Source of the DNA: Candidatus Saccharimonadota bacterium
Lineage (GTDB): Bacteria; Patescibacteriota; Saccharimonadia; Saccharimonadales; JAXHMH01
Reading direction: 5' to 3'
DNA length: 64,000 nucleotides
NCBI GenBank assembly: GCA_034521515.1
Contig: JAXHMH010000002.1
Span: forward strand, 437,761-501,760
Shown: one piece after another, positions 825-42,881 of the stretch
How the letters are laid out: each line of letters opens with the position of its first letter
Position numbering within the stretch: position 1 is the stretch's first letter
Translations under genes and position numbers: made by a program
The notes under the pieces: model-generated
The model's database searches: none
Told to the model about the DNA's origin: nothing
Seen by the model: the letters and a program-made list of their open reading frames with translations, nothing else

Positions 825-1670
825 CTAATCAGATGACTTTTTGGCGTTATGCATGACGCGTTGTGGGAACGGTATGGAAATACCGTTTTTATCAAATTCA
901 CGCTTGAGGCGCTTACGTAGCTCACCAGTCACTGCCCACTGCTGCATCGGTGCGGTTTTACCAACGATCTTGACGATAATCGCTGAGTCGGCAAAGTCCT
1001 CGACTCGTAGCATTTCAGGTGGTTCTACAATTTTGGATTTCCATGCCTCATCACCTGCAATATCTTTACCAACTGCATTGATGATTTTTTCAACCTTGTC
1101 TATGTCTGAGCTGTAATCAACACCAACATCTAGGTTCACGTTGGCGAACTCCATAGTCATATTAGTTGCAACCTCGATATTACCGTTAGGTACGTTGTGA
1201 ACCATACCATCAAGATCGCGCAGTACAGTTTGTCGAAGCGTTAAATGTTCTACAACACCGGCGACACCTTGATTAATTTGAACGACATCACCAACACGGT
1301 ATTGATTTTCGATGATAATAAAAAATCCAGCCAAAAAGTCCTTAACCATAGATTGGGCGCCAAAACCAAGAGCTACGCCGGCGATACCTGCACCGGCAAT
1401 AAGCGGTGCGATATCAACTCCAAACATTGAGAGAAGCAACATAGTAGCGACAACCCAGACCATCGCTCTTATTAACGCATCGACAATAGTAATAAGCGTA
1501 TCTTCGCGTTGTTTTTCGGCGGAGTGAGATTGATGGCTATCAGAACGTACAGCCTTACGAATCAGACGCTCAATGATAATCATGGCAAACTTACGTGCTA
1601 AGTAAGCCGAAGCAAGAATTAAGACAACTTGTAACCAGTGAGCGTGAAATAAATTCTCTAGCTTATCCAT
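825..1670 (-). CDS. mscS: Small-conductance mechanosensitive channel (MscS family)
   Basis: 281 aa. It has N-terminal TM helices followed by an MscS-type beta domain (GDVVQINQGVAGVVEHLTLRQTVLRDLDGMVHNVPN) and a C-terminal alpha/beta domain. Confidence 0.8.
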   Translation of the reverse strand: MDKLENLFHAHWLQVVLILASAYLARKFAMIIIERLIRKAVRSDSHQSHSAEKQREDTLITIVDALIRAMVWVVATMLLLSMFGVDIAPLIAGAGIAGVALGFGAQSMVKDFLAGFFIIIENQYRVGDVVQINQGVAGVVEHLTLRQTVLRDLDGMVHNVPNGNIEVATNMTMEFANVNLDVGVDYSSDIDKVEKIINAVGKDIAGDEAWKSKIVEPPEMLRVEDFADSAIIVKIVGKTAPMQQWAVTGELRKRLKREFDKNGISIPFPQRVMHNAKKSSD

Positions 1671-1727
1671 TGGCTTTTAGTATATCAATGATACCCCAGT
1701 ATGACCACAGTGATAAACTGATAGGTA

Positions 1728-2330
1728 ATGAAAACAGTTACCCGGGGAGAAGCGGCTCGTATTTTGATGAATCTAGGCAGAGTTGGAGTCATGCCTACCG
1801 ATACAGTGTATGGTCTGGTTTGCCGCGCACAAGATAAGCAGGCAGTATCTCGACTGTACTCACAAAAACAAAGAGAGAATAAGCCTGGTACCGTGATTGC
1901 CGCAAACGTTGCTCAACTAGTAGAGCTAGGGTTTAAATATCGCTACGTGAATGCCGGGGAGCAGTTTTGGCCGGGTCCAGTCAGTGTAGTGTTGCCACTT
2001 GGTCATGATTTAAAATATCTACACCTTGGTAAACATAGTCTGGCTGTTCGGATAACAGCTGACGGTGAATTAAAGGCTTTGCTTGAGCAAACAGGACCAC
2101 TGCTTACTAGTAGTGCTAATCATCCCGGTAAGCCTGAGTCTGAAACTATCGATGAAGCCAAAGCTTATTTTGGTGACAGTGTCGACTTTTATGTGGACGG
2201 CGGTGATTTGTCTGGCCGTAAGCCGTCAACAGTTATCAGGATTATCGACGATGCGGTAGAAGTTTTGCGCCAAGGAGCTGTTAAAATAGATGAAACTACT
2301 GGGAGGATTATAAAAAATGACATTCGATGA
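1728..2330 (+). CDS. tsaC: L-threonylcarbamoyladenylate synthase (TsaC/YrdC/Sua5 family)
   Basis: The YrdC-fold N-terminus is present (GVMPTDTVYGLVCRA...LYSQKQR...KPGTV). It is 200 aa and its 3' end overlaps the next gene. Confidence 0.75.
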   Translation: MKTVTRGEAARILMNLGRVGVMPTDTVYGLVCRAQDKQAVSRLYSQKQRENKPGTVIAANVAQLVELGFKYRYVNAGEQFWPGPVSVVLPLGHDLKYLHLGKHSLAVRITADGELKALLEQTGPLLTSSANHPGKPESETIDEAKAYFGDSVDFYVDGGDLSGRKPSTVIRIIDDAVEVLRQGAVKIDETTGRIIKNDIR

Positions 2331-2658
2331 ATACCAAGCGGCCGCTAAAAAAACCAATCTTACGCCGGCTGCTGATGAGGTTTTGAGTATTGGTTTTATG
2401 GATAAGGTACTTGGCCTAGTAGGCGAAAGTGCCGAGATAGCTGAAAAGGTCAAGAAAATCCTGCGCGACAAGCAGGGTGAGCTAAGCGAAGAAGACAAGC
2501 AGATGTTCGTCAAAGAACTTGGCGATGTTCTATGGTATATCGCGCTGATGGCCGATAATTTGGGCGTACCAATGGATGAAGTTGCCACACGTAATGTAGA
2601 AAAGCTAGCCTCACGCCAAAAACGCAATAAACTCACCGGTAGCGGAGATAACAGATGA
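2317..2658 (+). CDS. MazG-like nucleotide pyrophosphohydrolase (small all-alpha NTP-PPase)
   Basis: 113 aa carrying the MazG motif EELGDVLWYIALMADNLGV. It overlaps tsaC by 14 nt and nudix by 4 nt, so the three form an operon. Confidence 0.7.
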   Translation: MTFDEYQAAAKKTNLTPAADEVLSIGFMDKVLGLVGESAEIAEKVKKILRDKQGELSEEDKQMFVKELGDVLWYIALMADNLGVPMDEVATRNVEKLASRQKRNKLTGSGDNR

Positions 2659-3104
2659 GTTTAGATTCTTCACAACCGTACGCAGCAAGCTACGTTTTAC
2701 TTAACAAAAACGGGAAAAATGCCTTCGTTCTTCGGGGTGAAGGGTGTGGCTGGATGTCTGGATACTATGGCTTGCCCTCTGGAAAGATTGATAAAAATGA
2801 ATCAGCAACGGTAGCTGCAACCCGTGAAGTAGAGGAAGAAGTCGACGTAAAAATAAAGCAAGAAAAATTACGTCACGTGTTAACAATGCATCGTCATGAA
2901 AAAAATGATAAATACCCAGAGTGGGTGGACTTTTACTTTGAAGCAGACGAATGGGAGGGTGATGTTCGCAATTCCGAACCTCACATGCACGATGAACTCG
3001 CTTGGTTCTCATCTGATGAATTACCAGAAAATATTATCCCAAGTGTTCGTGCAGCACTTGAAGCCATCCAAAATGATGAGAACTTTACCGAGTACGGTTT
3101 TTAA
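2655..3104 (+). CDS. NUDIX hydrolase
   Basis: The Nudix box is present: GKIDKNESATVAATREVEEEVDV, matching GX5EX7REVXEEXGU. Confidence 0.75.
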   Translation: MSLDSSQPYAASYVLLNKNGKNAFVLRGEGCGWMSGYYGLPSGKIDKNESATVAATREVEEEVDVKIKQEKLRHVLTMHRHEKNDKYPEWVDFYFEADEWEGDVRNSEPHMHDELAWFSSDELPENIIPSVRAALEAIQNDENFTEYGF

Positions 3105-3135
3105 GCACCACTTGCCAACTACTTTTTGCCAACTA

Positions 3136-4431
3136 CTAACTACTGCGAACGAAGTTCTCTCTAAGCCATTCGTCTAAGCTATCGCCGCCGCCGCCAGCCA
3201 TGGCCACTACCATGTCGCCAGAATCTAGATGTTTTTGGATAACTTCTTTGAGCTTTTCGTCGCGCTCCAAGGGCTCTGCTATAGCTGGATTACTGAGGTG
3301 GGTAATCATTTCGGCAGGCGGAATAACGCGTTGATCAGGATCCTCGCGTGCTAAGTAGCTCGGAATCCAGTAGACTTTGTTGGCACCATCAAAACAATCT
3401 TTGTAGTCATCTATCATGTAGTGCTGGCGGCGATTGGTTAAAGGTTCGTATATCACGACAAGTTTGTTATCTCCGGACATCTCAAGCGCTACGCTCATGG
3501 CGCCACGGATTTTTTCTGGCGTGTGGGCGTAATCAGTGTAGAGATTAGGCACCAGCTCCTCCATGCGACGCTGGAGGCCAGGGAACTTGTTCATGTGTTC
3601 CACTAGGTCTGCAACCGGAGTTTTGGTTATTTTATGAGCTGATTGTATAGCCAGCCAAGCGTCTAGCCGGTTATACAAACCAGCCAGTTTAATATCATCA
3701 ATATGTTTGTGGCTGCTATCTAGGATTTCTAGTCCGTCACGTGGCGCTAGGCTTAGATAATCTGCATCTTCTTGCCATAAATAGGTGTGTTGGCTTTGAG
3801 AAATAAACTCCTGAAAGGCTTGTTGGTAATCCTCACGGGTGGGGAATATCTCATGATGATCCCATGTAACACCTGTAATTAGGCTAGTATGAGAGTTATA
3901 CGACAAAAAATTACGGTCAAACTCATCACATTCTAGAACAAAATATTTGGAACTTGCTTTATATTGACCCATATCGCCAAACGGTATTTTTGCCCCAACG
4001 GAATAACTCAGTGGGATGCCGAGCTGTTTGAATAGCCACACTGTCATAGCGGTGGTTGTTGTCTTGCCGTGGGTGCCAGCCACAGCAATTAGCTTGAGAT
4101 GTTTTTCGGAGATGATGTAATTAAGTAGCTCGTCACGCTTGCTCATCTTGATATTTTGCTCGCGGCAGTAAGTAAGCTCTGGAGCGTTTGGGTTTTCAAT
4201 TGCTACGGCTGAAGAATAAACGTACCAGTCAATTGGGTCTTCTTGGTGGACGTGTTCGATTTCGTCACGCTCTTGGCCGATGTGAATATTGACAATACCC
4301 TTACTTCGTAAGTAGTGGATATACTGAGAATCTTGCTTGTCGGAGCCAGATACTTCGTGCCCAGCTTGTTTGGCTATGAGGGCTAGGGGGCCGATGGCTG
4401 TCCCACCTATCCCACTAAAGAAAATATGCAT
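3136..4431 (-). CDS. Mur ligase family protein (UDP-N-acetylmuramate-L-alanine ligase MurC / Mpl-like)
   Basis: 431 aa. The N-terminal Rossmann motif is GIGGTAIGPLA and the Mur ligase P-loop is VAGTHGKTTTTAM. The C-terminal Mur ligase domain is also present. Confidence 0.75.
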   Translation of the reverse strand: MHIFFSGIGGTAIGPLALIAKQAGHEVSGSDKQDSQYIHYLRSKGIVNIHIGQERDEIEHVHQEDPIDWYVYSSAVAIENPNAPELTYCREQNIKMSKRDELLNYIISEKHLKLIAVAGTHGKTTTTAMTVWLFKQLGIPLSYSVGAKIPFGDMGQYKASSKYFVLECDEFDRNFLSYNSHTSLITGVTWDHHEIFPTREDYQQAFQEFISQSQHTYLWQEDADYLSLAPRDGLEILDSSHKHIDDIKLAGLYNRLDAWLAIQSAHKITKTPVADLVEHMNKFPGLQRRMEELVPNLYTDYAHTPEKIRGAMSVALEMSGDNKLVVIYEPLTNRRQHYMIDDYKDCFDGANKVYWIPSYLAREDPDQRVIPPAEMITHLSNPAIAEPLERDEKLKEVIQKHLDSGDMVVAMAGGGGDSLDEWLRENFVRSS

Positions 4432-4437
4432 GCTCTA

Positions 4438-4468
4438 AGTTTCGCATCACAGCGGTCTGCTGTCCAGC
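4438..4468. repeat. 31-bp direct repeat copy A1 (AGTTTCGCATCACAGCGGTCTGCTGTCCAGC)
   Basis: It is identical to 4703..4733. It lies 7 nt upstream of the Mur-ligase start codon, inside a GC-rich 515-bp intergenic region. Confidence 0.8.
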
Positions 4469-4702
4469 TGAAGCTGGCCACTCCACCGCTGTTCTTGGCA
4501 CATTGCGGCCGCTCATGCTCCAGTGCTCCTTCGGCGTATTGCATATACGCCTCTGTCCGCGCTTCGCTTGACCGACCACACTGCACTCAAGTGCGAAACT
4601 TAGGCTGGCTGCAGGTAAGTAGAAAGTATCAAGTGTTGCGACAACCATGTCCGTGTTTCATCGCTTCATCCGTCCTGCACTCAAGTGCGAACCTCGTGGC
4701 CG

Positions 4703-4733
4703 AGTTTCGCATCACAGCGGTCTGCTGTCCAGC
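4703..4733. repeat. 31-bp direct repeat copy A2
   Basis: It is an exact copy of 4438..4468. Partner repeats CTGCACTCAAGTGCGAAAC (4580..4598) and CTGCACTCAAGTGCGAACC (4675..4693) carry the reverse complement of the A 5' end. Confidence 0.8.
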
Positions 4734-4945
4734 GAGTTGGCAGTTGGTAGCTAGTAGATAGGAGTTGGGGGGTGCTGTGCGCTGGCAGGCTCCAGCATTA
4801 TTATCCAGTATCAAGTACTAAGTACTAGGTACTGAGCGCAGCTCCATCCTTTATCTATTACCTATCAACTATCACCTATCAATTTCCGTCTCCCGTCTCC
4901 AACACTGTGCTACACTTGACATGAGTAAAACTAAACATAAAAAGT

Positions 4946-6157
4946 ATGCTAAAAACACTAATTTCACGTATATTTCGCCGCCATCACTACTGGCGTAACA
5001 TTGGGTTTGATGAGCTCAGTGAGCTATATACGAGCATGATGTTTAGAAACCTGGCTCTAAGCTTGGTCGGTATATTTATACCGATATACCTATACGAACT
5101 TGGGTTTAGTCTGCCGATTATATTGTCGTTTTACGTGGTTATGTTTCTAACACGCATACCGGCAGATTTTATTACAGGTTATTGTGTAGCCAAATTTGGC
5201 CCTAAACACACTATGTTTTTAAGTTACATAGCCTATGTCATTGCGTTATCACTTTTTACAAGCTACGAACAATTCAATTGGCCAATTTACTTACTAGCAG
5301 TCGTGTGGGGTATTAGCGGCAGCCTGTTCTTCATTGCATTTCATGTTGATTTTTCTAAGGTGAAGCACAAAAAACACGGTGGTAAAGAGCTGGGGGTCTT
5401 AACTATAATGGAGCGACTTGGAGCTACGTTAGGGCCAATTACCGGTGGCGTTGTGGCCGCATTGTTTGGAGCACAGTACACCTTTTTAGCCGCCACATTG
5501 TTTTTTATGACCGCTTTAATCCCATTATTTTTTACTGCAGAGCCGGTCAAGACCAGGCAGCATCTAGACTACCGAGGGCTACCTATCAAGAAGCTTAAAC
5601 AGGATTTTATCTCGCACGCGTCACTTAGTGTCGAAAACAGTACCCATATTGCTATCTGGCCGTTGTTTCTAGCGCTATTTGTGTTTGTTGACAATATTTA
5701 TCTTCAGATTGGCGCCCTAACTTCATTTGCTGTTATTGTGTCGGTGATTCTTGCCCGAGTTATCGGTCAAACGGTTGATAATAAAAAAGGTAGGCGTTTA
5801 CTAAGAATTGGCTCACGGGCAAATATAATTCTACATGGACTACGGCCAATGGTCAGTTCGTTTGGGCTCGCGCTGTCAGTAAACTTTATTCACGAGATTT
5901 TGACTACATCTTTCCGCTTACCGTATATAAAAGGTATGTATGATCGAGCCGATGAGCTAGAGGGGCACAGAATTGTCTATATTGTTTCGCTAGAAGCTCT
6001 TAGCTGTATTGTTAGAGCAGCATTCTACGGGTTGCTGGCAATTTTGGCGCTTAGTTTCAGTTCATTTAGTGTGTTTGTTGCTGCTTTCGGGTTAGCGGCA
6101 ATTGCTTCATACGGTATCACGCTAGAAAAATTCCCAGCTTTGAATGTAAAAAAATAG
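4946..6157 (+). CDS. Polytopic membrane transporter, probably MFS-type
   Basis: 403 aa with about 12 predicted TM helices in a 6+6 layout and a central cytoplasmic loop. The family call rests on topology only. Confidence 0.5.
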   Translation: MLKTLISRIFRRHHYWRNIGFDELSELYTSMMFRNLALSLVGIFIPIYLYELGFSLPIILSFYVVMFLTRIPADFITGYCVAKFGPKHTMFLSYIAYVIALSLFTSYEQFNWPIYLLAVVWGISGSLFFIAFHVDFSKVKHKKHGGKELGVLTIMERLGATLGPITGGVVAALFGAQYTFLAATLFFMTALIPLFFTAEPVKTRQHLDYRGLPIKKLKQDFISHASLSVENSTHIAIWPLFLALFVFVDNIYLQIGALTSFAVIVSVILARVIGQTVDNKKGRRLLRIGSRANIILHGLRPMVSSFGLALSVNFIHEILTTSFRLPYIKGMYDRADELEGHRIVYIVSLEALSCIVRAAFYGLLAILALSFSSFSVFVAAFGLAAIASYGITLEKFPALNVKK

Positions 6158-34537: not shown

Positions 34538-34574
34538 AAGAAAAGAGTCCCACTTGAAGTGGGACTCTTTTCTT
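34538..34574 (-). terminator. 16-bp perfect hairpin abutting the tRNA-Met 3' end (AAGAAAAGAGTCCCAC-ttgaa-GTGGGACTCTTTTCTT)
   Basis: Read from the sequence. The stem begins at the tRNA CCA. Confidence 0.6.
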
Positions 34575-34650
34575 GGTAGCGGCGACAAGACTTGAACTTG
34601 TGACCTCCGGCTTATGAGTCCGGCGCTCTAACCAGCTGAGCTACGCCGCC
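34574..34650 (-). tRNA. tRNA-Met (CAU), elongator-like
   Basis: Manual cloverleaf: acceptor GGCGGCG/CGCCGCU with a G1.U72 wobble, D-loop AGCUGGUUA, anticodon loop CU-CAU-AA, variable loop AGGUC, T-loop UUCAAGU, discriminator A, and CCA encoded. Confidence 0.75.
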
Positions 34651-34819
34651 CCGTCAGAACCGACGGTCAGCTTCCACAAAAGTCGCTTATGACTTTTGTT
34701 TCACCTTCTAGTCGCTTCTTCCTGTCAAAATCCCAAACAGCAGACAAACTGCTTGGTTTGGTCTTTTGGGTTCTAGCATTGGAACAGAGGTCAATATATC
34801 ATATCCACTACATTAAGAA

Positions 34820-34846
34820 AAGCCGGGCGTGCACACCCGGCTTTTT
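34820..34846 (+). terminator. Intrinsic terminator AAGCCGGGCGTGCACACCCGGCTTTTT within the long leader upstream of the RRM gene
   Basis: 8-bp GC stem followed by T5. It has no upstream CDS on this strand. Confidence 0.5.
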
Positions 34847-35351
34847 GACTGACCGCTTAATTAATCAAAGTCGGTTTAGCAATTTGTCTACCTTGAGGAT
34901 GCCCGAATTTTTGGTTGGAGCAAACTCATACGCAAATTTAAGCGCCATACACCAGTCCTTTCAATGTTTATTTTGTGTTGTTTGTTTTAGTCGACTAACA
35001 CTACACATTATACATGCTTTTGCTTTTTTGTCAACTTCAGTACTACACACCTCTTGGCGGCTAGCTTTGTTGACAGCTGTAGTGCTCGTTCAACGTATTA
35101 GAATACGTCTCTCTGCGCGCTGCTCTGTCGCCGTGCTATCCATCCGAGTGAGTAGCCCTGAATACCTCATCTGTAAATATGCCTATTGTAGGATCCATAG
35201 ATTTGTGCTTTACTTGGCGTGCAGGTTCTTATCTGTTGTTCGCATGAGAAGGTCGTTTGTTTTTTGATTAAAGAACACCGTTTGACAGTTCAATGCCAGA
35301 GACAGAAAGGGGTCGTACCTCGCAACAAGTTCTTTAATTAGGAAACAACAC

Positions 35352-35654
35352 ATGTACAAATTATTCGTAGGTGGATTACCTTTTTCCACCACAGACGATG
35401 AGCTCGCACAATCATTTGGCGAGCACGGCACAGTAGCTTCTGCTGTTGTCATCAAAGACCGCGACACCGGCCGTAGCAAAGGCTTCGGTTTTGTCGAGTT
35501 CGAAAATGACGAAGAAGGTAAAGCTGCAGAGAAGGCTCTTAATGGGTCTGATATGGGTGGCCGCTCCATCACTGTTAACGAGGCTCGTCCTCGTGAAGAA
35601 CGTCCACGCCGCGATTTCAACAATCGCGACAACGGCGGCAACCGCGGCTGGTAG
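35352..35654 (+). CDS. RRM-type RNA-binding protein (glycine/arginine-rich tail)
   Basis: RNP-2 is LFVGGL and RNP-1 is KGFGFVEF. The tail RDNGGNRGW is RGG-like. Confidence 0.85.
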   Translation: MYKLFVGGLPFSTTDDELAQSFGEHGTVASAVVIKDRDTGRSKGFGFVEFENDEEGKAAEKALNGSDMGGRSITVNEARPREERPRRDFNNRDNGGNRGW

Positions 35655-35673
35655 TTAATACCACTGCGCAAGC

Positions 35674-35703
35674 AAACACCCCGGTAAAACGGGGTGTTTT
35701 TTA
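35674..35703. terminator. Bidirectional intrinsic terminator CAAACACCCCGGTAAAACGGGGTGTTTTTT
   Basis: 8-bp stem flanked by an A-run and a T-run, between the convergent RRM and sigma genes. Confidence 0.7.
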
Positions 35704-36378
35704 TACTTCTTCTATTGTTGACTCCTTGTCTGGGAATACAAGTTCACGTAACCGTCTTCTTGCCCTGTGCAATCGCACCTTAGATGCAGTCTCTGATATA
35801 CCAAGCTTTTGGGCAATAACATCATGCGGCAAATCATAGACATCTCGCAAAACTACCACAGACCTCATTATTGGCGATAATTGCTCTATCGCAGACCTCA
35901 GTTCATCTCGTAATTCGGCATTTTCTACACGATGCTCAACGTCATAGTCTGAATGTTTTGCCACGTATTCTTTAGTTTCATCCTCGTCCCTATTGATAGC
36001 TAATTTATCCTGAAGTTTCTTACGTTTTTCAATGTACGTATTGGCAGCATTAACAGTTATCCGGTGAAACCATGTCGTAAAGCTGGACTCGCCGCGAAAA
36101 CCAGGTAAACCACGCCACGCGCGAAGATAACTTTCCTGAACAACCTCGCTGGCACCTTCCGCGTCATGCGTAAAACGGCGGGCAGTACTGTAGGCGTGTC
36201 CGGACGTAAGCCTTACGATATCTTCAAATTTCCGTTGCGCGGCTATGTGATAAACAGATGATTCATCGTCTGCTAACTTTAGATCAGCTTGAACAGCATC
36301 CACTAACTTACTAACTCGAGCCTGATACTCTTCTTCTGGAGTTAACTCCACGTCTCCGTAGTTATAAGCTTCCGACAT
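35701..36378 (-). CDS. ECF-type RNA polymerase sigma factor (sigma-70 regions 2 and 4)
   Basis: Region 2 is YLRAWRGLPGFRGESSFTTWFHRITVN. Region 4 HTH is LPHDVIAQKLGISETASKVRLHRARRRL. Confidence 0.8.
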   Translation of the reverse strand: MSEAYNYGDVELTPEEEYQARVSKLVDAVQADLKLADDESSVYHIAAQRKFEDIVRLTSGHAYSTARRFTHDAEGASEVVQESYLRAWRGLPGFRGESSFTTWFHRITVNAANTYIEKRKKLQDKLAINRDEDETKEYVAKHSDYDVEHRVENAELRDELRSAIEQLSPIMRSVVVLRDVYDLPHDVIAQKLGISETASKVRLHRARRRLRELVFPDKESTIEEV

Positions 36379-36541
36379 AGTTACATATTATATAATTACC
36401 CGCATGCTATCGCAATTACTAGTTCTTGCATAACAGATACCAACCTGCTATAGTAACAACTTGCCAAACAGCCTACACTTTTCCCATCCTGGGTTAAGTG
36501 AGGACTAGCCAGAAAGTGGATGCTTCCCTTTCTGGCAATAA

Positions 36542-36616
36542 CGCGGGGTAGAGCAGCGGCAGCTCGTGTGGCTCATAACCACAAGGTCGGAGGTTCGAGT
36601 CCTCCCCCCGCTACCA
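36542..36616 (+). tRNA. Initiator tRNA-fMet (CAU)
   Basis: 5' CGCGGGG with an unpaired C1xU72, an A11:U24 pair in the D-stem, anticodon loop CU-CAU-AA, and CCA encoded. The 5' acceptor and D-arm closely match E. coli tRNA-fMet. Confidence 0.8.
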
Positions 36617-38183
36617 AGAAAGACTTTTCAGGTTCTGGAAGGTCTTTTTTATTTTCTATCACTCTGTAAAGCGAGCTAATTTCTTTGGTTCCAAACCTGC
36701 GGCTGTTGCTGTCATAGACCACACCCCTTGGGAACAATATGCTTTGGAACCTTTGCTTTGATTGAGGCGAAGCAACCGTCCATTGCTGGTCAATATTACG
36801 CATTACATCTAAAGCCAAGGTTATGTCAGACTCTCTAATGTTCTGTTGCTTTTCGAGCTTCTGGAGCTCTTCTGTGAGGGTGAGCTTTTCTTCATCTAGG
36901 GCTGCTATGAGATCAGTCTTTTCCTCTGCAGTAAGCTGATCCGCGTTGAACTTCCTGATAGCAGAAAGGCGGTCATCCGCTATTGAACTCAGTCTGTTGC
37001 GTTCTCTTTTTATCTTTCCGTTGAGCTTACCGAGTTGTGTAGCAGCCTCTGTAATTAATATCTCTTTGTAGAGCTCTATTAATCTATCTTCAGGCTTAAG
37101 TCTTTCGAGCATAGTAGTAAAGTCTTCGTGTATAACAGAAGCCTTCACAGACTTGCTCAAGCCCTTACAGGATGAACGAGAGCAGTGATAGCGGGGCGAC
37201 TTACCACCCGATCCAGTCCTAGGAGCAGAAGCGTACAGTGGCTTTGTACAGTGCGAACAAAGCACCAGGCCTTTCAAAGGATAATCTGGGTTAAGCGATT
37301 GGTGTACTTCTCCAAGACGAGTGTTCTTGCCATGTAATAGCGTTTGGTTGAGCTGGTATGTGTCCTTTGAGATTAATGCCTCATGCTGACCCTCTACGAG
37401 CTGCCAGTCAGTATGATTGTCGGCAACATAGCCCGCATACACGGGATGCTTAAGCATGCGATTGATACTATCTTCGCCTACTTTCTTTCCGTATCGACTA
37501 CGAAGCCCTATGGTGGCAGCATATCTTGCAAGCTCAGCTTTGCTTATATCGCCTTGAGAGAAGCGTTCTAGCATCTGTTTTACATACGGTGCCATTGTAT
37601 TCGGCTTTAGCGTTGGGCGGGGCTTACCCATGTCATTAGGTTTCTTGAAGGCATCATACCCAAGTATAGGTGGGTGCTGCCACCATCCTTGTAAAGCGAG
37701 GTTACGCATATTGTCTTTCGTGACATCAGACTTACCCTCATTGTCTAGTTGACCTAGTGCTACAAGCAGGGTCTCCATAAACCGCCCCTCTCTCGTATCA
37801 TCAACCGCTGGCTCGGTTGCGGAACGAACCGTAATGCCTAGTGCCTTTAATATTGTTCCTACGTGATTTGAATAGCTGTCTATGTCACGAGATGCACGCT
37901 TCATGTTATAGACAATCCAGTGCTGTATTTTCCCTTTATTCTTCGAACAGTACTTCAGTAAGTCTTGTAGGCCAGTTCTATTAGCGTTCTTGCCAGACCT
38001 TGCAATGTCCTCAAACCATTCGACTATCTCTATTCCTTGGGCATCGGCGTACGCTTGTATAGCCTGCCTCTGTGTCGCAGGGCTCTCATTATTAATCTGC
38101 CGCATGCTTGAGATACGAACGTATGCGACTGCTTTCTTCTGTGCTGGTGGTTGACCTAGACTATTCATCAGCTTTGGAACCAT
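36573..38183 (-). CDS. Large serine recombinase (resolvase catalytic domain + recombinase domain + zinc ribbon + coiled coil)
   Basis: The N-terminus carries AVAYVRISSMRQ with the catalytic Ser. The zinc ribbon is CSHCTKPLY...YHCSRSSC. The last 14 codons are the antisense of the tRNA-fMet 3' half. Confidence 0.85.
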   Translation of the reverse strand: MVPKLMNSLGQPPAQKKAVAYVRISSMRQINNESPATQRQAIQAYADAQGIEIVEWFEDIARSGKNANRTGLQDLLKYCSKNKGKIQHWIVYNMKRASRDIDSYSNHVGTILKALGITVRSATEPAVDDTREGRFMETLLVALGQLDNEGKSDVTKDNMRNLALQGWWQHPPILGYDAFKKPNDMGKPRPTLKPNTMAPYVKQMLERFSQGDISKAELARYAATIGLRSRYGKKVGEDSINRMLKHPVYAGYVADNHTDWQLVEGQHEALISKDTYQLNQTLLHGKNTRLGEVHQSLNPDYPLKGLVLCSHCTKPLYASAPRTGSGGKSPRYHCSRSSCKGLSKSVKASVIHEDFTTMLERLKPEDRLIELYKEILITEAATQLGKLNGKIKRERNRLSSIADDRLSAIRKFNADQLTAEEKTDLIAALDEEKLTLTEELQKLEKQQNIRESDITLALDVMRNIDQQWTVASPQSKQRFQSILFPRGVVYDSNSRRFGTKEISSLYRVIENKKDLPEPEKSFLVAGGGLEPPTLWL

Positions 38184-38651
38184 TATAGCACAGTTGTTCT
38201 TTTGCTAACAGATGTAATGTATGGATAAGTTTTTTTACTTGGTCATCAGAAAGTGAGCTTGCGGTTGACCCCAAGATACGTCTAGCTTTTGCAACGGATA
38301 CAATCTCGACCAAGACAAAGACCTCGTCCTATTAGTTGATAGATTTGGTCTATCAAGCCAAGGAAAAGCCTCAAATAAAAAAGGTGCAAAAAGGCTTTGC
38401 TTGGCTCAATAGAGCCCCTTTCTGCACCGTTGTGCTGACGTACATTATACCATACTTAACCCTAAAATGATACAATCACAGGGTCTAGGTTTACAGTTCA
38501 CGCAGCAAGTATTGCTTGCAATTACGGTTATGCCCAATAAGGGCAGCCGTAAGCAGTAGGCGTAACCGCGTTTGCTGTAGACCTAGACAGTCCAATTGCG
38601 GCTGTCCTTTTTGTTAACGGGGCATATGCATTAAGACAGAAAGGTGATCCT

Positions 38652-38978
38652 GTGAGCAGTAAAAAGCATAGTAAATCAGTCGATGAGAAGTTTGACGAGC
38701 TTAAGACAACTCTGAGTACTGAAGACATATTTAGTAGCGTTAAAGAAAACTATGAACCAGCTCAGCACAAGCGTCCCAGTAAAGCCATGAAGATTGCTAG
38801 GGAGGGTATTGATATTATCAAAGGTCTTTTACTGATAGCCGCTATTTGTGCAGGCGTAATTCTTGCAGGTTATTTACTAGCACGAAGCCAGCCAGAAATT
38901 ATATGTAAGCAGATACCTGTAGACGGTGAAACAGTATGTAAAGAAGGAGAAAACGGTGAGTGGTACTTCCCAAGATAA
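38652..38978 (+). CDS. Small hypothetical protein with C-terminal TM helix (island cargo)
   Basis: 108-aa ORF with GTG/ATG start ambiguity. Confidence 0.35.
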   Translation: MSSKKHSKSVDEKFDELKTTLSTEDIFSSVKENYEPAQHKRPSKAMKIAREGIDIIKGLLLIAAICAGVILAGYLLARSQPEIICKQIPVDGETVCKEGENGEWYFPR

Positions 38979-39297
38979 TCAAGCATCAAAGAAGCCCAAG
39001 CGTAGGATTGGTCTTTGGGTGGTGATAGGGCTACTGCTAGTCATAGGCATAAATGGCGGAATAAAAGGTGTGCAGCGTGGTAACCAGCGTGCGGCACAGT
39101 CAGCAGCTACACGTGCAGGCTTTATGCAGGATTGTGTGACTGACCCAGAATCAGCCGCTTTCTGTGTTTGTCTATACGACACCATGGGAGAGCAGGCGAT
39201 GCTAGAGGCATACGACCGCTACAAGGCTACCAATGAATACAACAACAAGTTTAAGGCTGTTGCTGCTGATTGCACAAGACTAGAGCAGGCTGACTAG
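38956..39297 (+). CDS. Small hypothetical membrane-anchored Cys-containing protein (island cargo)
   Basis: An AAGGAG SD lies 7 nt upstream of the GTG at 38956, in frame with the 38926 ORF. It has a TM helix and 4 Cys. Confidence 0.35.
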   Translation: MSGTSQDNQASKKPKRRIGLWVVIGLLLVIGINGGIKGVQRGNQRAAQSAATRAGFMQDCVTDPESAAFCVCLYDTMGEQAMLEAYDRYKATNEYNNKFKAVAADCTRLEQAD

Positions 39298-39678
39298 TTC
39301 TTTAAGCTGCTCCGGATTCTTGTGCAGATCAACCTCAATCCTGCTGGAAAGTTTGCTGTGCTGCCCTAAGGCTGTGCGTTCATCATCGTATAGGTCGTCA
39401 TCAAACCATAGGAATGGCTGGCTAAAGTCAATTGCATCCGTCTTTGCTTGCCCCCACTCAGTAGGCTTTATACAGCCAAGCAGGGCTTGGGTTTCAGGTT
39501 TTAGGTAAGGTGCTAGGGTTTGATCTATCATATTCTCGCCATTCCAAACATGAGTGGTTAGCCAATAAGTATTGTCTGGGTACTTGGTAAGCACTGTTTG
39601 TAGAAACTCATCTGCATGTTTTGCAGGTGTTGCCATATCTGCAAGAAGTACACCGTCAATGTCTAGGTAGATATTCAT
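39280..39678 (-). CDS. HAD-like small hydrolase (DxDGVL N-terminal motif)
   Basis: MNIYLDIDGVL matches HAD motif I. The protein is 132 aa. Confidence 0.45.
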   Translation of the reverse strand: MNIYLDIDGVLLADMATPAKHADEFLQTVLTKYPDNTYWLTTHVWNGENMIDQTLAPYLKPETQALLGCIKPTEWGQAKTDAIDFSQPFLWFDDDLYDDERTALGQHSKLSSRIEVDLHKNPEQLKELVSLL

Positions 39679-39690
39679 GGTAATTCTTAA

Positions 39691-40443
39691 TTAAAGTCGT
39701 GAATTGCCTTCAGTCTTCACATCAGCCTCTATGAACTTTATAAATTCTTTAGCAAAGTCTGTTAACGCCCACCCAGTAATCTGTCCAGCACTTGAAAATC
39801 CCCAACCACCATTAATAGCAGACACTCGCCTGACCAGGCCGAGAAACTCGAGTTCATTAAGTTGATCATTCATTTTACCGAGGTTACCAGTACTATCATA
39901 TTTAGAAAAGGGCTTGGAGTTAAGCTCTTTCTGATACCACCATTCAAACGGTTGCTCAGTGCCTAAGTTTTTTTGCTCAAGCTCTGATTTAATCCTAATC
40001 TCCATTTCTGGTAGTACGCTATTCTTCACAAATGCCAATGCCCTCAGGCTAACTGGTGATATTTTTCTAAGCGTGTCGTTGTACCTTTCTAGCGGGAACT
40101 CTACCTTATCATCGCAAGCCGCAAACTCCTCAAATGCTTTGAGTGCTACACGCCTCTTCAGGAAGTCTCTGAGCTTTATATAGTCTTCTAGTGCTACGAC
40201 AAAACCATCTTGGAATTCGTCAGAGTTAACAAGCCTCTCATTAAATATAGTGGGGTTGTTTGATATTGCTTCGACCCACTCCAACGCTCGCTGCTGTCTA
40301 AGTTGAAGTGCATTGCCAAACAGGGCTTTACTTAATGCCCATGCCTGAGCAAGTCCAGGTAAGACTGACGCAGTGCTGTCAATGAGTGCGAATCCCGAAC
40401 GCTTGAGCAGATTTTTATCAGACTTGCTGTTTGATTTTGCCAT
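39691..40443 (-). CDS. Hypothetical protein (island cargo, unknown function)
   Basis: 250-aa ORF directly upstream of the HAD-like gene, so the two may form an operon. No motifs were recognised. Confidence 0.4.
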   Translation of the reverse strand: MAKSNSKSDKNLLKRSGFALIDSTASVLPGLAQAWALSKALFGNALQLRQQRALEWVEAISNNPTIFNERLVNSDEFQDGFVVALEDYIKLRDFLKRRVALKAFEEFAACDDKVEFPLERYNDTLRKISPVSLRALAFVKNSVLPEMEIRIKSELEQKNLGTEQPFEWWYQKELNSKPFSKYDSTGNLGKMNDQLNELEFLGLVRRVSAINGGWGFSSAGQITGWALTDFAKEFIKFIEADVKTEGNSRL

Positions 40444-40726
40444 ATTTACATTATAAGGGATTGTTGGAATAGGAAGACACGCTAGGGTCTATACCCATCC
40501 ACAAAGATATATATACCGCATAGTATCTTTTAGAATTGGGGGGGTGGGGCTACTTTTGTACTGCTGACTGGATAGTATTTTCTTTTCATGCAGCCCCTAT
40601 ATAACGTCAACATGCGAAAGGCGGGATACTACCGCCGAACATAAGCCCTAGTCACCGAGAGAGATCCATGTAAAAAAACTATTCAGAAAACATAAGCCAA
40701 AGAACTTGTTTACTGGGTGAGATTGG

Positions 40727-41569
40727 CTACATATTTCTCATTGCTTTCAGCTGTAATATAATTGCCTCTAAAGCGGACGAGTAAGCCTGGTGACCATCGA
40801 TGTAATTTTTTACATATTCATATGCATCATCAGGACTGCCAGCACTAGGAAAATCTAAGAAATCTAGGTCTTTGTAGTTAACCTTTATTCTCATCCAATA
40901 AAAGAAATCGGTCAGGTTAAGCGTACTGGTCGCATAATAATTGTCCCTACTAGATCTGCTTGCGGCCGTGCTATAGGTCTTGATTTTTCTTCCTGCTTTC
41001 CAGTCTTGTTCCTGGTATTCCGATATTTTCTTACGAACCGAATGTACACAATCATCAGTGAGGTAATAAGTTGGCGAGAGGTTTGCTCCAGATGCAATCT
41101 TATGTGTACGAATCATTGCAATAGTCGACTGTGTAGAGATATTAACGTTTGAGAATGCTAGTTGATTATTATTTATGAGTATACTCAAAGCCCTGCGAAC
41201 CCCTTTATGGCCTCCTCTACCAAAGCCAATCGAATTACCATTCAATAGGTAGACCATAATGCTCTCAAGGTAGTAGATTCTGTAATAGCATTTAACTGGT
41301 ATCCAGCCGACTATTATTTGAGCATATTCGTGATCAATCGAACCAGCCTTTAACTCGATTTCAATGCTTTTTGAAGTAAGGTCAGCAAGCTTTTTGAATC
41401 TATTTATGTTTGTTGTAGATAGTGCAGAAGTGGGAGTAAGAGGCGTAGTAAGCGAGAGCCCCGCGTACTGCCCAGCAATACAACGTACATAATTTAGATG
41501 TGTCTTGAATATACTTTCACTAGAACTTGGCATATATAAAATAATTATAGTGTTATCACTGCATTTCAC
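40727..41569 (-). CDS. Hypothetical protein (island cargo, unknown function)
   Basis: 280-aa ORF. No motifs were recognised. Confidence 0.4.
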   Translation of the reverse strand: MKCSDNTIIILYMPSSSESIFKTHLNYVRCIAGQYAGLSLTTPLTPTSALSTTNINRFKKLADLTSKSIEIELKAGSIDHEYAQIIVGWIPVKCYYRIYYLESIMVYLLNGNSIGFGRGGHKGVRRALSILINNNQLAFSNVNISTQSTIAMIRTHKIASGANLSPTYYLTDDCVHSVRKKISEYQEQDWKAGRKIKTYSTAASRSSRDNYYATSTLNLTDFFYWMRIKVNYKDLDFLDFPSAGSPDDAYEYVKNYIDGHQAYSSALEAIILQLKAMRNM

Positions 41570-41592
41570 CGAATTCCTATATAATCTTTACT

Positions 41593-41997
41593 ATGGGATG
41601 GCCACGAAATAGCTACACTGGTTACGGTGAAGGATCCTGTCCGGCACGAAGCGGTATGTATAAGGCCAGGCAGAGGTGCATCCTGCCAGGCCCAGGCGGA
41701 GGTGCATCTGCGGGCAGGTTGGAAGCAGTATGTATACCAGGCCAGGGTGGTGGACTATCTACCGGCCCAGGTGGTGGACTATCTACCGGCCCAGGTGGTG
41801 GACTATCTACCGGCCCAGGTGGTGGACTATCTACCGGCCCAGGTGGTGGACTGTATACTGGTCCAGGTGGCGGATTATACGCAGGCCCTAGTCCTTACTA
41901 CAGCAATATCCCGCCTCGCCATTTATATCTCGAAGAACTAAAGAGACGTGGCTTGATGCAATACTATGACTTATTAAAGCGTGCTTGGAGACTTTAG
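41593..41997 (+). CDS. Gly/Pro-rich repeat protein (GPGGGLST)n
   Basis: The ORF spans the 24-bp tandem DNA repeat. Coding status is uncertain. Confidence 0.35.
   Translation: MGWPRNSYTGYGEGSCPARSGMYKARQRCILPGPGGGASAGRLEAVCIPGQGGGLSTGPGGGLSTGPGGGLSTGPGGGLSTGPGGGLYTGPGGGLYAGPSPYYSNIPPRHLYLEELKRRGLMQYYDLLKRAWRL
41740..41883. repeat. Tandem repeat of 6 copies x 24 bp (GGCCCAGGTGGTGGACTATCTACC)
   Basis: The three central copies are identical and the terminal copies are degenerate. Confidence 0.85.
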
Positions 41998-42221
41998 TGA
42001 TTAGCCCTAGTTAAGCTTAGGCTCTTTTGAGTATGGCGATGACTCCTACTGTTAAGGGAAGGGGGTTGCTGGGATAGAACACCTCGTTACACTCGGTTAG
42101 TTCTAGTCCCAGCTCATCTTTAGCTTGAAGGAGTTCTACCCCTAATACCTGCCCCCAGCGTAATATTTCTGAACAGATGTCGTTCCAATGTGAATGTACT
42201 TGGGCTACCAAGAAAAATGCT

Positions 42222-42881
42222 TCACTTTTTGGTGGAGCTTTTTTCTTGCTCAGGATTATGAAAATAGTTGGGGCTGTCTGTCCAGTCGAGTAGCATTTGA
42301 TAGTACGGCTTAAGGTGCTTAGAGACTAAAATGGTGCGTTTTTTATCATTATGCATCTGTTTGGTGATTTTGTGTTTGCGCCAGTAATCAGACTTCTCAC
42401 CAAGATTTATAAGGATCGGTGGCAAAATTTTATCAACCGCATATACGAACTTCGCTTCCTCGTCGCGCTTGTCTTTGTAACCCCTCGCGTAGTCTATGAG
42501 CTCTGGAAAATCTGGCCATTCTTTGGCAAGCTGTTTGAGTGCTTTATCTTCCCGGTCGTTTTTAGTGGATAGCTGATCCTCGGGTGCGAAAACAAATGTA
42601 TCGCCCGCATGGAGCTCGACAATATCGTGAGCCAGCGCATACTTTAACACCTTTTCTTGACTGAGTTCGGGCGCCAGCTTTGGTGCAAGAAACCAGACGG
42701 TTAGCGCAAGCCCGTAACTATGGTCAACATCATTCTCGGGACGATTTTTATCAGCGAGGTTGAGTACTCGCTCAATGCACGCAAAATCAGCGATAAGCTG
42801 TTGGAGTTCAGCAATACGGTCGATAGATGGACGTTGCTTGGGCATACCGTAATAGTAATTGATTTGCACTTTATATAGCAA
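42222..42881 (-). CDS. HD-domain 5'-deoxynucleotidase (YfbR-like, HD_3)
   Basis: Carries ENDVDHSYGLA and ALAHDIVELHAGD motifs typical of YfbR-type HD hydrolases. Confidence 0.65.
   Translation of the reverse strand: MLYKVQINYYYGMPKQRPSIDRIAELQQLIADFACIERVLNLADKNRPENDVDHSYGLALTVWFLAPKLAPELSQEKVLKYALAHDIVELHAGDTFVFAPEDQLSTKNDREDKALKQLAKEWPDFPELIDYARGYKDKRDEEAKFVYAVDKILPPILINLGEKSDYWRKHKITKQMHNDKKRTILVSKHLKPYYQMLLDWTDSPNYFHNPEQEKSSTKK

Follow-up and report, generated by a model that had tools for sequence, protein, structure and literature searches.

Elements with a tyrosine recombinase use the 3' ends of tRNA genes for integration, and elements with a serine recombinase are described as inserting within dispensable genes and disrupting them (PMC5704250). 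Genomic islands of the kind collected by Islander are inserted at the 3' end of a tRNA gene, the gene is restored by the insertion, and a displaced fragment of it marks the far boundary (PMC4383910). For the SSV-type integrases of archaeal viruses and plasmids the attachment site lies in the integrase open reading frame (ORF), the target is a tRNA gene, and the integrase gene is split between the two ends of the provirus (PMC7253208, PMC8371274). The locus described here lies in a stretch of 64,000 nucleotides from a Candidatus Saccharimonadota bacterium (contig JAXHMH010000002.1, positions 437,761 to 501,760), which is called the window below and to which all coordinates refer. In it, the region 36610-42215 is very probably an intact integrated copy of a small circular integrative element, a member of a large, widespread and Saccharibacteria-specific family of elements of 3.7-10 kb in which the attachment site attP is contained in the gene for a large serine recombinase (LSR).

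The recombinase has the same domain set, with a four-cysteine zinc ribbon, as the described LSRs (phiC31, Bxb1, A118/LI, TP901-1, SPbeta SprA, TnpX, CcrAB and XisF). It also resembles them in the position of its gene at one end of the element next to attP, and in a distal attachment motif that is shifted by 5 bp as for A118. It differs from them in that the 3' end of a tRNA gene is targeted and left functional, that the identical core is 8-14 bp long instead of 2 bp, and that attP falls inside the recombinase ORF, so that the protein differs between the circular and the integrated element. The 'suicidal' SSV integrases share with it an att site inside the integrase ORF and a tRNA target, but they are archaeal and of the tyrosine class, and their integration leaves two inactive pseudogenes, whereas here a serine enzyme exchanges only its tail and all recognised LSR domains stay in one ORF. 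The Islander islands have in common with the element the insertion at a tRNA 3' end and a variable, often defensive cargo. Their integrase is however a tyrosine recombinase, while the present one is a serine recombinase, the displaced fragment comprises only 7 tRNA bases and 5 flanking bases, and the replacement terminator is encoded inside the integrase gene. In the integration-dependent immunity of mycobacteriophages such as BPs and Brujita, which have a tyrosine integrase, attP lies inside the repressor gene, and integration changes the C-terminus of the product, with a functional consequence that has been demonstrated. The likeness to these phages is an attP within a coding gene, and the difference is that here the recombinase itself is altered. 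Phage mv4 was considered as a bacterial precedent for an int gene that overlaps attP and was set aside, since the paper on it did not confirm this. No description of this element family, or of an LSR ORF spanning its own attP, was found in open-access papers and preprints.

The recombinase gene and its attachment site

The target gene is an initiator tRNA-fMet (CAU) at 36542..36616 (+), recognised by ARAGORN and Rfam (61.4 bits) and intact after the insertion. Its anticodon is CAT, and the 5' start CGCGGGG and the 3' end CCCCGCTACCA place C1 opposite U72; a C1/U72-type mismatch is typical of bacterial initiator tRNAs. The LSR gene (36573..38183, -) meets it tail to tail and encodes, in the integrated state, an isoform of 536 aa that was identified by its Pfam domains and its homologs. 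The Resolvase (1.4e-23), Recombinase (PF07508, 1.7e-11) and Zn_ribbon_recom (PF13408, 3.9e-6) domains all score above the curated cut-offs, and distant NCBIfam matches are to XisF and CcrB. The catalytic residues Y21, R23, S25 and Q29 (YxRxS...Q motif) and the zinc-ribbon cysteines C309, C312, C334 and C339 do not vary among 50 family members. Residues ~370-470, a candidate coiled-coil region that follows the zinc ribbon and precedes a conserved C-terminal block, are charged and leucine-rich and gave weak, unrelated Pfam matches only. By its domains and invariant residues the product is thus assigned to the large serine recombinases. The conserved N-terminus 'MVPK' reported by gene callers for many family members is an overlapping reading of the conserved ...YNGSK codons of a small ORF upstream (38161-38183), and the true start of the LSR is probably the next ATG, at 38168.

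The LSR ORF and the tRNA gene overlap by 44 nt, which comprise the stop codon and the last ~14 codons, and the tRNA-fMet antisense strand supplies the final 11 residues and the stop codon. The original prediction, made from the letters of the window and a list of its ORFs, had placed a tRNA-fMet next to a tail-to-tail LSR of 536 aa with resolvase, recombinase and zinc-ribbon domains, and had the last 14 codons of the latter antisense to the 3' half of the tRNA. ARAGORN, Rfam and Pfam agree with the first statement and the measured overlap with the second.

The edges of the island are marked by the 12-mer GCTACCAAGAAA, which consists of the last 7 bases of the tRNA and 5 flanking bases and occurs three times in the window against 0.02 occurrences expected. 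The copy at 36610..36621 (+), tRNA positions 70-76 plus 5 nt, is the attL core, that at 42204..42215 (+) is the attR core at the right edge, and the third copy is the end of another CAT tRNA. A terminator scan of the window placed a terminator-like hairpin after every copy. From the copies at 36610 and 42204 the island measures 5,594 bp (36610-42215), and it ends just before a convergent HD-domain gene. A search for a direct repeat of the attachment core at the edges thus returned a 12-bp repeat of the tRNA-fMet 3' end, and the right boundary, set at 42000 in the prediction, has to be moved to 42204-42215. The cargo had also been described as more AT-rich than its surroundings, which does not hold: GC content is 44.3% for the island, as compared with 44.6% in other windows of equal size (z = -0.2), and 43.7% for the cargo (z = -0.6), and it is mildly low only in the stretch 39280-41569 (41.5%, z = -1.6). 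A compositional deviation is nevertheless present in tetranucleotide usage, for which the island is the most deviant part of the window (z = +8.3).

Inside the right-hand repeat begins an ORF of 64 codons (42017..42211, -), whose frame is that of the LSR at the left-hand repeat. When the ends of the island are joined in silico, a single ORF of 586 aa results, ending ...EKSFLVAQVHSHWNDICSEILRW..., and the right-hand ORF is, by this junction and by homologs, a detached exon for the C-terminal tail of the LSR (LVAQVHSHWNDICSEILRW...), in frame with it across the att core. The reconstructed junctions read TATTTCTGAACAGATGTCGTTCCAATGTGAATGTACTTGGGCTACCAAGAAAGACTTTTCAGG... for attP, ...GAGTCCTCCCCCCGCTACCAAGAAAAATGCTTCACTTTTTGG for attB and, again for attP, ...AATGTACTTGGGCTACCAAGAAAGACTTTTCAGGTTCTGG. 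The fused 586-aa protein was used as query in a homolog search, and the classes of tail were counted on the best 120 of 258 homologs (E <= 1e-10); identity is 55-93% for these 120, and the few with a named organism come from Saccharibacteria or Patescibacteria. Exact-sequence look-ups of the LSR in its 536-aa and 531-aa forms, and of the Ham1 neighbour, matched nothing. A tail of the form ...LVAG.G(F/L)EP.T.WL, the antisense of the tRNA T-arm, ends 105 of the 120, and 12 end instead in ...LVAQVHSNWN.I..EL.RW..., matching the detached tail ORF of the window. The remaining three have odd or truncated tails. The 12 proteins with an intact tail are all on contigs of <=9.8 kb, as compared with 20-700 kb for the contigs of ~32 proteins with the tRNA tail. 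Since joining the ends restores a 586-aa LSR with the tail that is seen on circular contigs, the reconstructed attP is situated within the 3' end of the LSR gene, and the C-terminus of the protein differs between the circular and the integrated state. This feature, the most unusual of the locus, had escaped the original prediction. A chance in-frame ORF, for which 61 stop-free codons give a probability of ~3%, was considered and rejected, as 12 homologs have this peptide continuous with their LSR. Two proteins, P0032 and P0034, diverge after LVA and have tails that fit neither the antisense of tRNA-fMet nor the pattern of the circular forms; they may have inserted at other sites or been rearranged. 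The remark in the original prediction that LSRs usually avoid tRNA genes fits the general review (PMC5704250), but in the lineage of Saccharibacteria tRNA targeting is the rule, as the 105 of 120 best homologs illustrate.

The joined-end sequence contains an attP palindrome, CTTGG-GCTA-CCAAG, and from its centre an invariant 8-mer, ATTGGAAC, which includes the HWN codons, lies at +16 to +23. The attB counterpart A(C/T)T(C/T)GAAC, the antisense of the tRNA T-loop, lies at +11 to +18, and the best fit of the B and P arms, with 62% identity, comes when they are offset by exactly +5 bp (other shifts give <=44%). For the integrase of Listeria phage A118 the distal motif of the zinc-ribbon domain is displaced outward by 5 bp in attP as compared with attB (PMC3783163). 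The same offset would put the crossover at tRNA positions 71-72, and strand exchange is accordingly predicted at C71-U/A72, with CT at 36611-36612 as the crossover dinucleotide. By analogy, the tRNA T-loop would serve as the zinc-ribbon motif of the attB half-site, and ATTGGAAC would be the same motif in attP, 5 bp further out. The window contains a second CAT tRNA, of elongator or Ile2 type (34569-34650, -), which ends with GCTACCAAGAAA followed by a perfect 19-bp hairpin and has no recombinase beside it; it might be a secondary target, and its T-loop also fits A(C/T)T(C/T)GAAC.

By the insertion the host's original tRNA terminator (42219..42246, +, terminator scan), which also serves the convergent HD-domain gene, has been displaced by 5.6 kb, and it stays at attR. 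The tRNA is now followed by a hairpin with a T-run carried by the element (36616..36650, +, found by terminator scan and covariation), which is antisense to the LSR codons KKDLPEPEKSF. Throughout the family the 30-35 nt after the CCA-A of the tRNA are antisense to an LSR linker (KKDLPEPEKSF, KKDSEEPSKSF, EKAPEGALES and similar), and a hairpin with a T-run folds from this stretch in ~32 of 35 LSR genes, circular forms included. In the two classes of hairpin that were aligned, 99% and 90% of the cells are paired, with 5 pairs in each class changed on both sides; none of 500 shuffles reached as high a value, and sliding the register lowers all measures. A hairpin is likewise present on the host side of every related attR, and at the empty sites of relatives the tRNA is followed directly by AGAAAA and a hairpin. 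Upon integration the tRNA stays intact, since the bases beyond the crossover and a new terminator hairpin are both brought by the element. The element thus keeps an essential tRNA gene complete and terminated, its own hairpin replacing the terminator of the tRNA.

Circular forms, empty sites and relatives of the element

The distribution of the element was followed in a family scan with one genome per species, which gave 48 loci, nearly all in Saccharibacteria. For every complete integrated member of the closer clade, the 3' end of the LSR gene falls within an initiator tRNA gene of the other strand, and all 30 target tRNAs of this clade are of initiator type, with position 1 mismatched to A/U72. 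A tail exon on the same strand as the LSR was found 3.7-10 kb upstream of it in ~22 integrated loci. In ~20 of these both ends have a core GC[T/A]ACCAA of 8-14 nt, with the same choice of T or A at either end in every case.

The four elements with an intact tail that were fetched, on six contigs, all assemble as circles, with terminal overlaps of k-1 or k nt. They are L002 (9,845 bp, 30-nt overlap), an element of 8,462 bp recovered from three samples as identical circular permutations (L003, L004, L005), L006 (6,325 bp, 127-nt overlap) and L036 (4,668 bp, 127-nt overlap). A chromosomal contig used as control had no such terminal overlap, and no tRNA-Met gene was found in the three of these elements that were scanned (L002, L003 and L006). 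The contigs are likely to represent free circles. On the 8.4-kb circle, ARAGORN reported a 92-nt 'tRNA-Trp (CCA)' (L003 345-436), which could be a false positive or an intron-containing tRNA.

Sites without the element were seen in three relatives with Saccharibacteria-like contexts (L082, L133 and L135), in which an upstream RRM-protein gene 78-83% identical to that of the window precedes the tRNA-fMet and a hairpin, and no LSR occurs in the 1.4-2.5 kb downstream that were checked. One of them, L135, also carries an FtsH gene (80% identity) and a sigma-factor gene ahead of its LSR-free tRNA-fMet. An identical LSR of 533 aa (P0007) is followed by DivIC in L008 and L010 and by a response regulator and histidine kinase pair in L009, which indicates the same element in different host backgrounds. 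The cargo is different in nearly every one of 26 elements compared, only the LSR and a small upstream ORF being shared. Finding the same genes at the same position in relatives would have spoken against an island; the opposite was seen, namely empty sites or different cargo. Together with the repeat at its boundaries and the circular forms in the family, this upholds the original prediction of an integrated LSR island beside tRNA-fMet.

Several loci have remnants of tail exons in tandem upstream of a single LSR, two to four per locus overall: L033 (at 2861, 3678 and 5171), L035 (269, 1041 and 1592), L039 (67, 1293, 1451 and 2789) and L031 (489 and 1304). These are consistent with serial insertions at the same tRNA, of which the older copies have decayed. 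A sister clade of LSRs (~43% identity) ends antisense inside tRNA-Glu (TTC/CTC) in L044-L046, L049, L050, L056-L059 and L062, and in L048, L051 and L052, where the gene does not abut a tRNA, it has an alternative, unintegrated tail LVTHV..W..I. The 32-nt 3' half of the window's tRNA-fMet was found unchanged in 87 metagenome stretches with diverse surroundings. These loci are too mixed to yield an occupancy rate, and the examples of empty sites were limited to the loci with the 78-83% identical RRM gene; in many of L064-L143 a further fMet tRNA copy stands in tandem. Apart from the window's own, just one contig has an identical sigma-factor gene, namely L001 (Logan SRR26473340), and it is 100% identical to window 34544-36567 over 2,024 bp. 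It breaks inside both CAT tRNA genes and says nothing about occupancy of the site; the breaks could reflect population variation at both tRNA sites.

Cargo of the window copy and of the family

The seven ORFs of the island other than the LSR gave no significant match in Pfam, NCBIfam, PHROGs or PADLOC, in line with the earlier description of the cargo as having no recognisable family. Directly upstream of the LSR lies the small conserved ORF of 50 aa (38161..38313, -), known from its homologs; homologs of 50-79 aa occupy the same position in at least 16 of the 26 elements, and it may be a candidate regulator or directionality factor. Two small proteins from the ORF list, of 108 aa (38652..38978, +) and 123 aa (38926..39297, +), have one hydrophobic segment each, and each has a homolog in the closest related island, L015. 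A glycine-rich repeat ORF (GGGLSTGP, ~6 copies; 41593..41997, +) was found with Tandem Repeats Finder, and its coding status is uncertain. It has no homolog in the 26 related elements and holds the 24-bp tandem repeat already noted by the original prediction, now located at 41746-41878 (5.5 copies, 93% matches).

The 132-aa protein encoded at 39280..39678 (-) is a minimal HAD-like protein by its motifs. The DxDG motif reported before is real, since HAD motifs I-IV (DIDGVLL, LTTH, K79 and FDDD) are all invariant in a small family of 5 homologs from 5 elements. In profile searches its best match was to HAD_SAK_2, at E = 0.035 and 14.9 bits against a cut-off of 27.5 bits, with none among the NCBIfam and PDB profiles. 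The next two genes encode MDZ7744605.1, a helical protein of 250 aa (39691..40443, -), and MDZ7744606.1, of 268 aa (40727..41533, -), which can be extended to 41569 to give a 280-aa form; both accessions are on a 706-kb contig of a Candidatus Saccharibacteria metagenome-assembled genome. The fold check proposed for these two proteins succeeded for the larger one, which has a four-helix up-down bundle of HEPN topology, while the 250-aa protein gave only weak winged-helix-type matches in its C-terminal part and is possibly of that type. Searches of PDB sequence profiles with the alignments of the 250-aa, 268-aa and HAD-like proteins gave nothing usable. The residues W77, K81, H109 (in a GGH context), R215, K217, N219 and Y220 are invariant in the 268-aa family. 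An Rx4-6H motif is absent from the protein: after R215, the sole invariant arginine, come K217, N219 and Y220, and no histidine stands at a distance of 4-6 residues. In this it differs from the HEPN toxins and defence proteins (MNT-HEPN, HepS, the C-terminal domain of AbiA, RnlA/LsoA). It is moreover double the length of a plain HEPN domain, lacks a fixed partner gene and gives no sequence-level match to a HEPN family. The HEPN-fold protein is likely a stand-alone toxin or defence gene, an assignment that we make with low to moderate confidence.

Other islands and circles of the family carry Hachiman (HamA and a DEAD helicase), two restriction-modification systems, OLD/AriA/GajA-type ATPases, AIPR, SocA/Panacea, a reverse transcriptase, NYN, Schlafen/AlbA, nSTAND NTPases, pairs of an S8 peptidase with an AAA ATPase, and pairs of SRAP with an ImuB-like polymerase. 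The cargo of the family is interchangeable and dominated by defence genes, and in sister islands known defence models are matched by Old/AriA/GajA-like ATPases, by HamA with a DEAD helicase and by restriction-modification systems. The Hachiman genes are at 2911-6185 of L008; the free circle L002 encodes an NgoPII endonuclease, a C5 methylase and an HTH protein at 3137-5167, and L063 an AlwI endonuclease with two D12-class methylases at 1579-5134.

Alternative readings and the meaning of the tail exchange

That the LSR is a domesticated, immobile chromosomal gene beside tRNA-fMet, with ordinary lineage-specific genes as neighbours, we regard as highly improbable. Such a reading would agree with the LSR-tRNA arrangement in most of the relatives sampled and with the native-like GC content. 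It does not agree with circular forms that carry the restored gene, with empty sites in relatives, with a cargo that differs in nearly every copy, with an identical LSR in different flanks, with the tandem tail remnants from serial insertions, or with the deviant tetranucleotide composition. Several observations do weigh against the element as we describe it. Circular assemblies could also come from tandem integrated copies, which contain the attP junction as well, and the empty sites are from moderately diverged relatives and not from the same species. There was no read-level evidence for excision of the window copy, whose exact attB/attR flank and own attB or attP junction were not found in the JGI metagenomes searched, no replication, conjugation or packaging gene was recognised in it, and by eye no symmetric zinc-ribbon-domain motif is evident on the P' and B' arms. 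On the side of the cargo, PADLOC matched none of the seven proteins, and the HEPN-fold protein lacks the catalytic Rx4-6H motif. How the elements travel bears on a further alternative, that they are phage satellites (PICI-like) packaged by helper phages of Saccharibacteria, rather than plasmid-like or borne by transformation. Proteins resembling the terminase small subunit (TerS) occur in 5 of 26 elements, of 4.6-10 kb and without other phage structural genes (L018 5142-5573, L035 8403-8750, L025, L028 and the circular L036), with PHROGs matches of E = 1e-9 to 2e-10 and a Pfam Terminase_2 score of 29.3 bits against a cut-off of 26.1 bits. Phage satellites have hotspots of variable defence genes, which the variable defence cargo resembles. 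However, a TerS-like gene is missing from the window copy and from most other elements, one circle carries an FtsK/HerA-like ATPase instead (the window copy has neither), relatives in IMG/VR reach only 20-21% identity, and we know of no helper phage. Part of the family may be phage satellites on this evidence, and for the family as a whole we hold it unlikely. The original prediction had singled out the 280-aa, 250-aa and HAD-like genes (40727..39280) as one undescribed defence or abortive-infection module. The three are adjacent on one strand, the 268/280-aa member has the HEPN fold, the weak HAD_SAK_2 match fits a theme of RNA damage and repair, and sister islands do contain defence systems. 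But the 250-aa family is present in L011 with neither of the others and in L155 with no member of the 280-aa family, the 280-aa family occurs without the 250-aa family in L063 and L153, and each of the four other elements with the HAD-like family lacks both the 280-aa and the 250-aa family. The best hits of the 280-aa and 250-aa families share no contig but the window's, a gap of 283 nt separates their genes, and there is neither a PADLOC match nor an Rx4-6H motif. As the three families were not found in company at any other locus, and as remoter homologs of the 250-aa and the 268-aa protein are placed outside recombinase islands, the trio does not stand as a single module, and the proposal is distinctly unlikely.

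Returning to the integrative element with attP in its LSR gene, the integration into the tRNA swaps the last ~20-60 residues of the recombinase for 11 read from the antisense strand of the tRNA. The exchange could be without regulatory meaning, attP overlapping the 3' end of the LSR gene through mere compactness, with both isoforms equal or the tail dispensable, and to this we give nearly an even chance. The tails were compared as 37 distinct sequences, with variability in bits taken per codon position. Over codons 1-10 conservation is equal at the three positions (0.60, 0.49 and 0.68 bits), and 22 of 22 loci have ATTGGAAC unchanged, which together point to constraint at the level of DNA, as for a binding site. 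Conservation in this part thus reflects the DNA site and not a peptide, which speaks for such a reading. Likewise, tail length (61 aa in the window, ~33 aa elsewhere) and the sequence beyond ~residue 22 vary freely, and the catalytic, recombinase, zinc-ribbon and putative coiled-coil parts are all upstream of the swap. Codons 11-20, however, lie beyond the 25-bp half-site of the A118 model and keep I12, E15, R18 and W19 through synonymous and two-position codon changes, with 0.81 bits at codon position 2 vs 1.32 at the more variable position 3. For E15 the codons GAA, GAG, GAT and GAC are used, for R18 both CGN and AGR, and W19 is present in 35 of 37 tails. The tail exon, moreover, is still open in most integrated copies. 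By this comparison the tail serves as the P arm of attP and at the same time as a selected peptide of ~20 residues. Whether the swap goes further and tunes the activity or the direction of the LSR is a doubtful proposition, and we offer tentatively, as a rather doubtful special case, that the C-terminus senses the state of the element. The 586-aa isoform, through its conserved I..EL.RW helix, would then favour attP x attB recombination, and the 536-aa form, acting alone or with the small upstream ORF, would permit excision by attL x attR. If true, the direction of an LSR would be set by the att site that its own gene spans and not only by a separate directionality factor.

Little has been described of the mobile elements in Saccharibacteria and other ultra-small Patescibacteria, and the present family, with its 258 homologs (E <= 1e-10), appears to be common there and makes the tRNA-fMet site a recurrent hotspot for variable, often defensive cargo. 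The C-terminal linker of the LSR is a clear example of dual coding, specifying a protein segment and, on the opposite strand, a covarying terminator, driven by the need to spare an essential gene. LSRs are widely used tools for genome engineering, the target of this clade is unusual, and its att sequences can be read from dozens of loci, which offers a candidate integration system where genetic manipulation is very difficult, and possibly in many other organisms. An LSR whose C-terminus is altered by its own integration is, finally, a natural experiment in the control of directionality.

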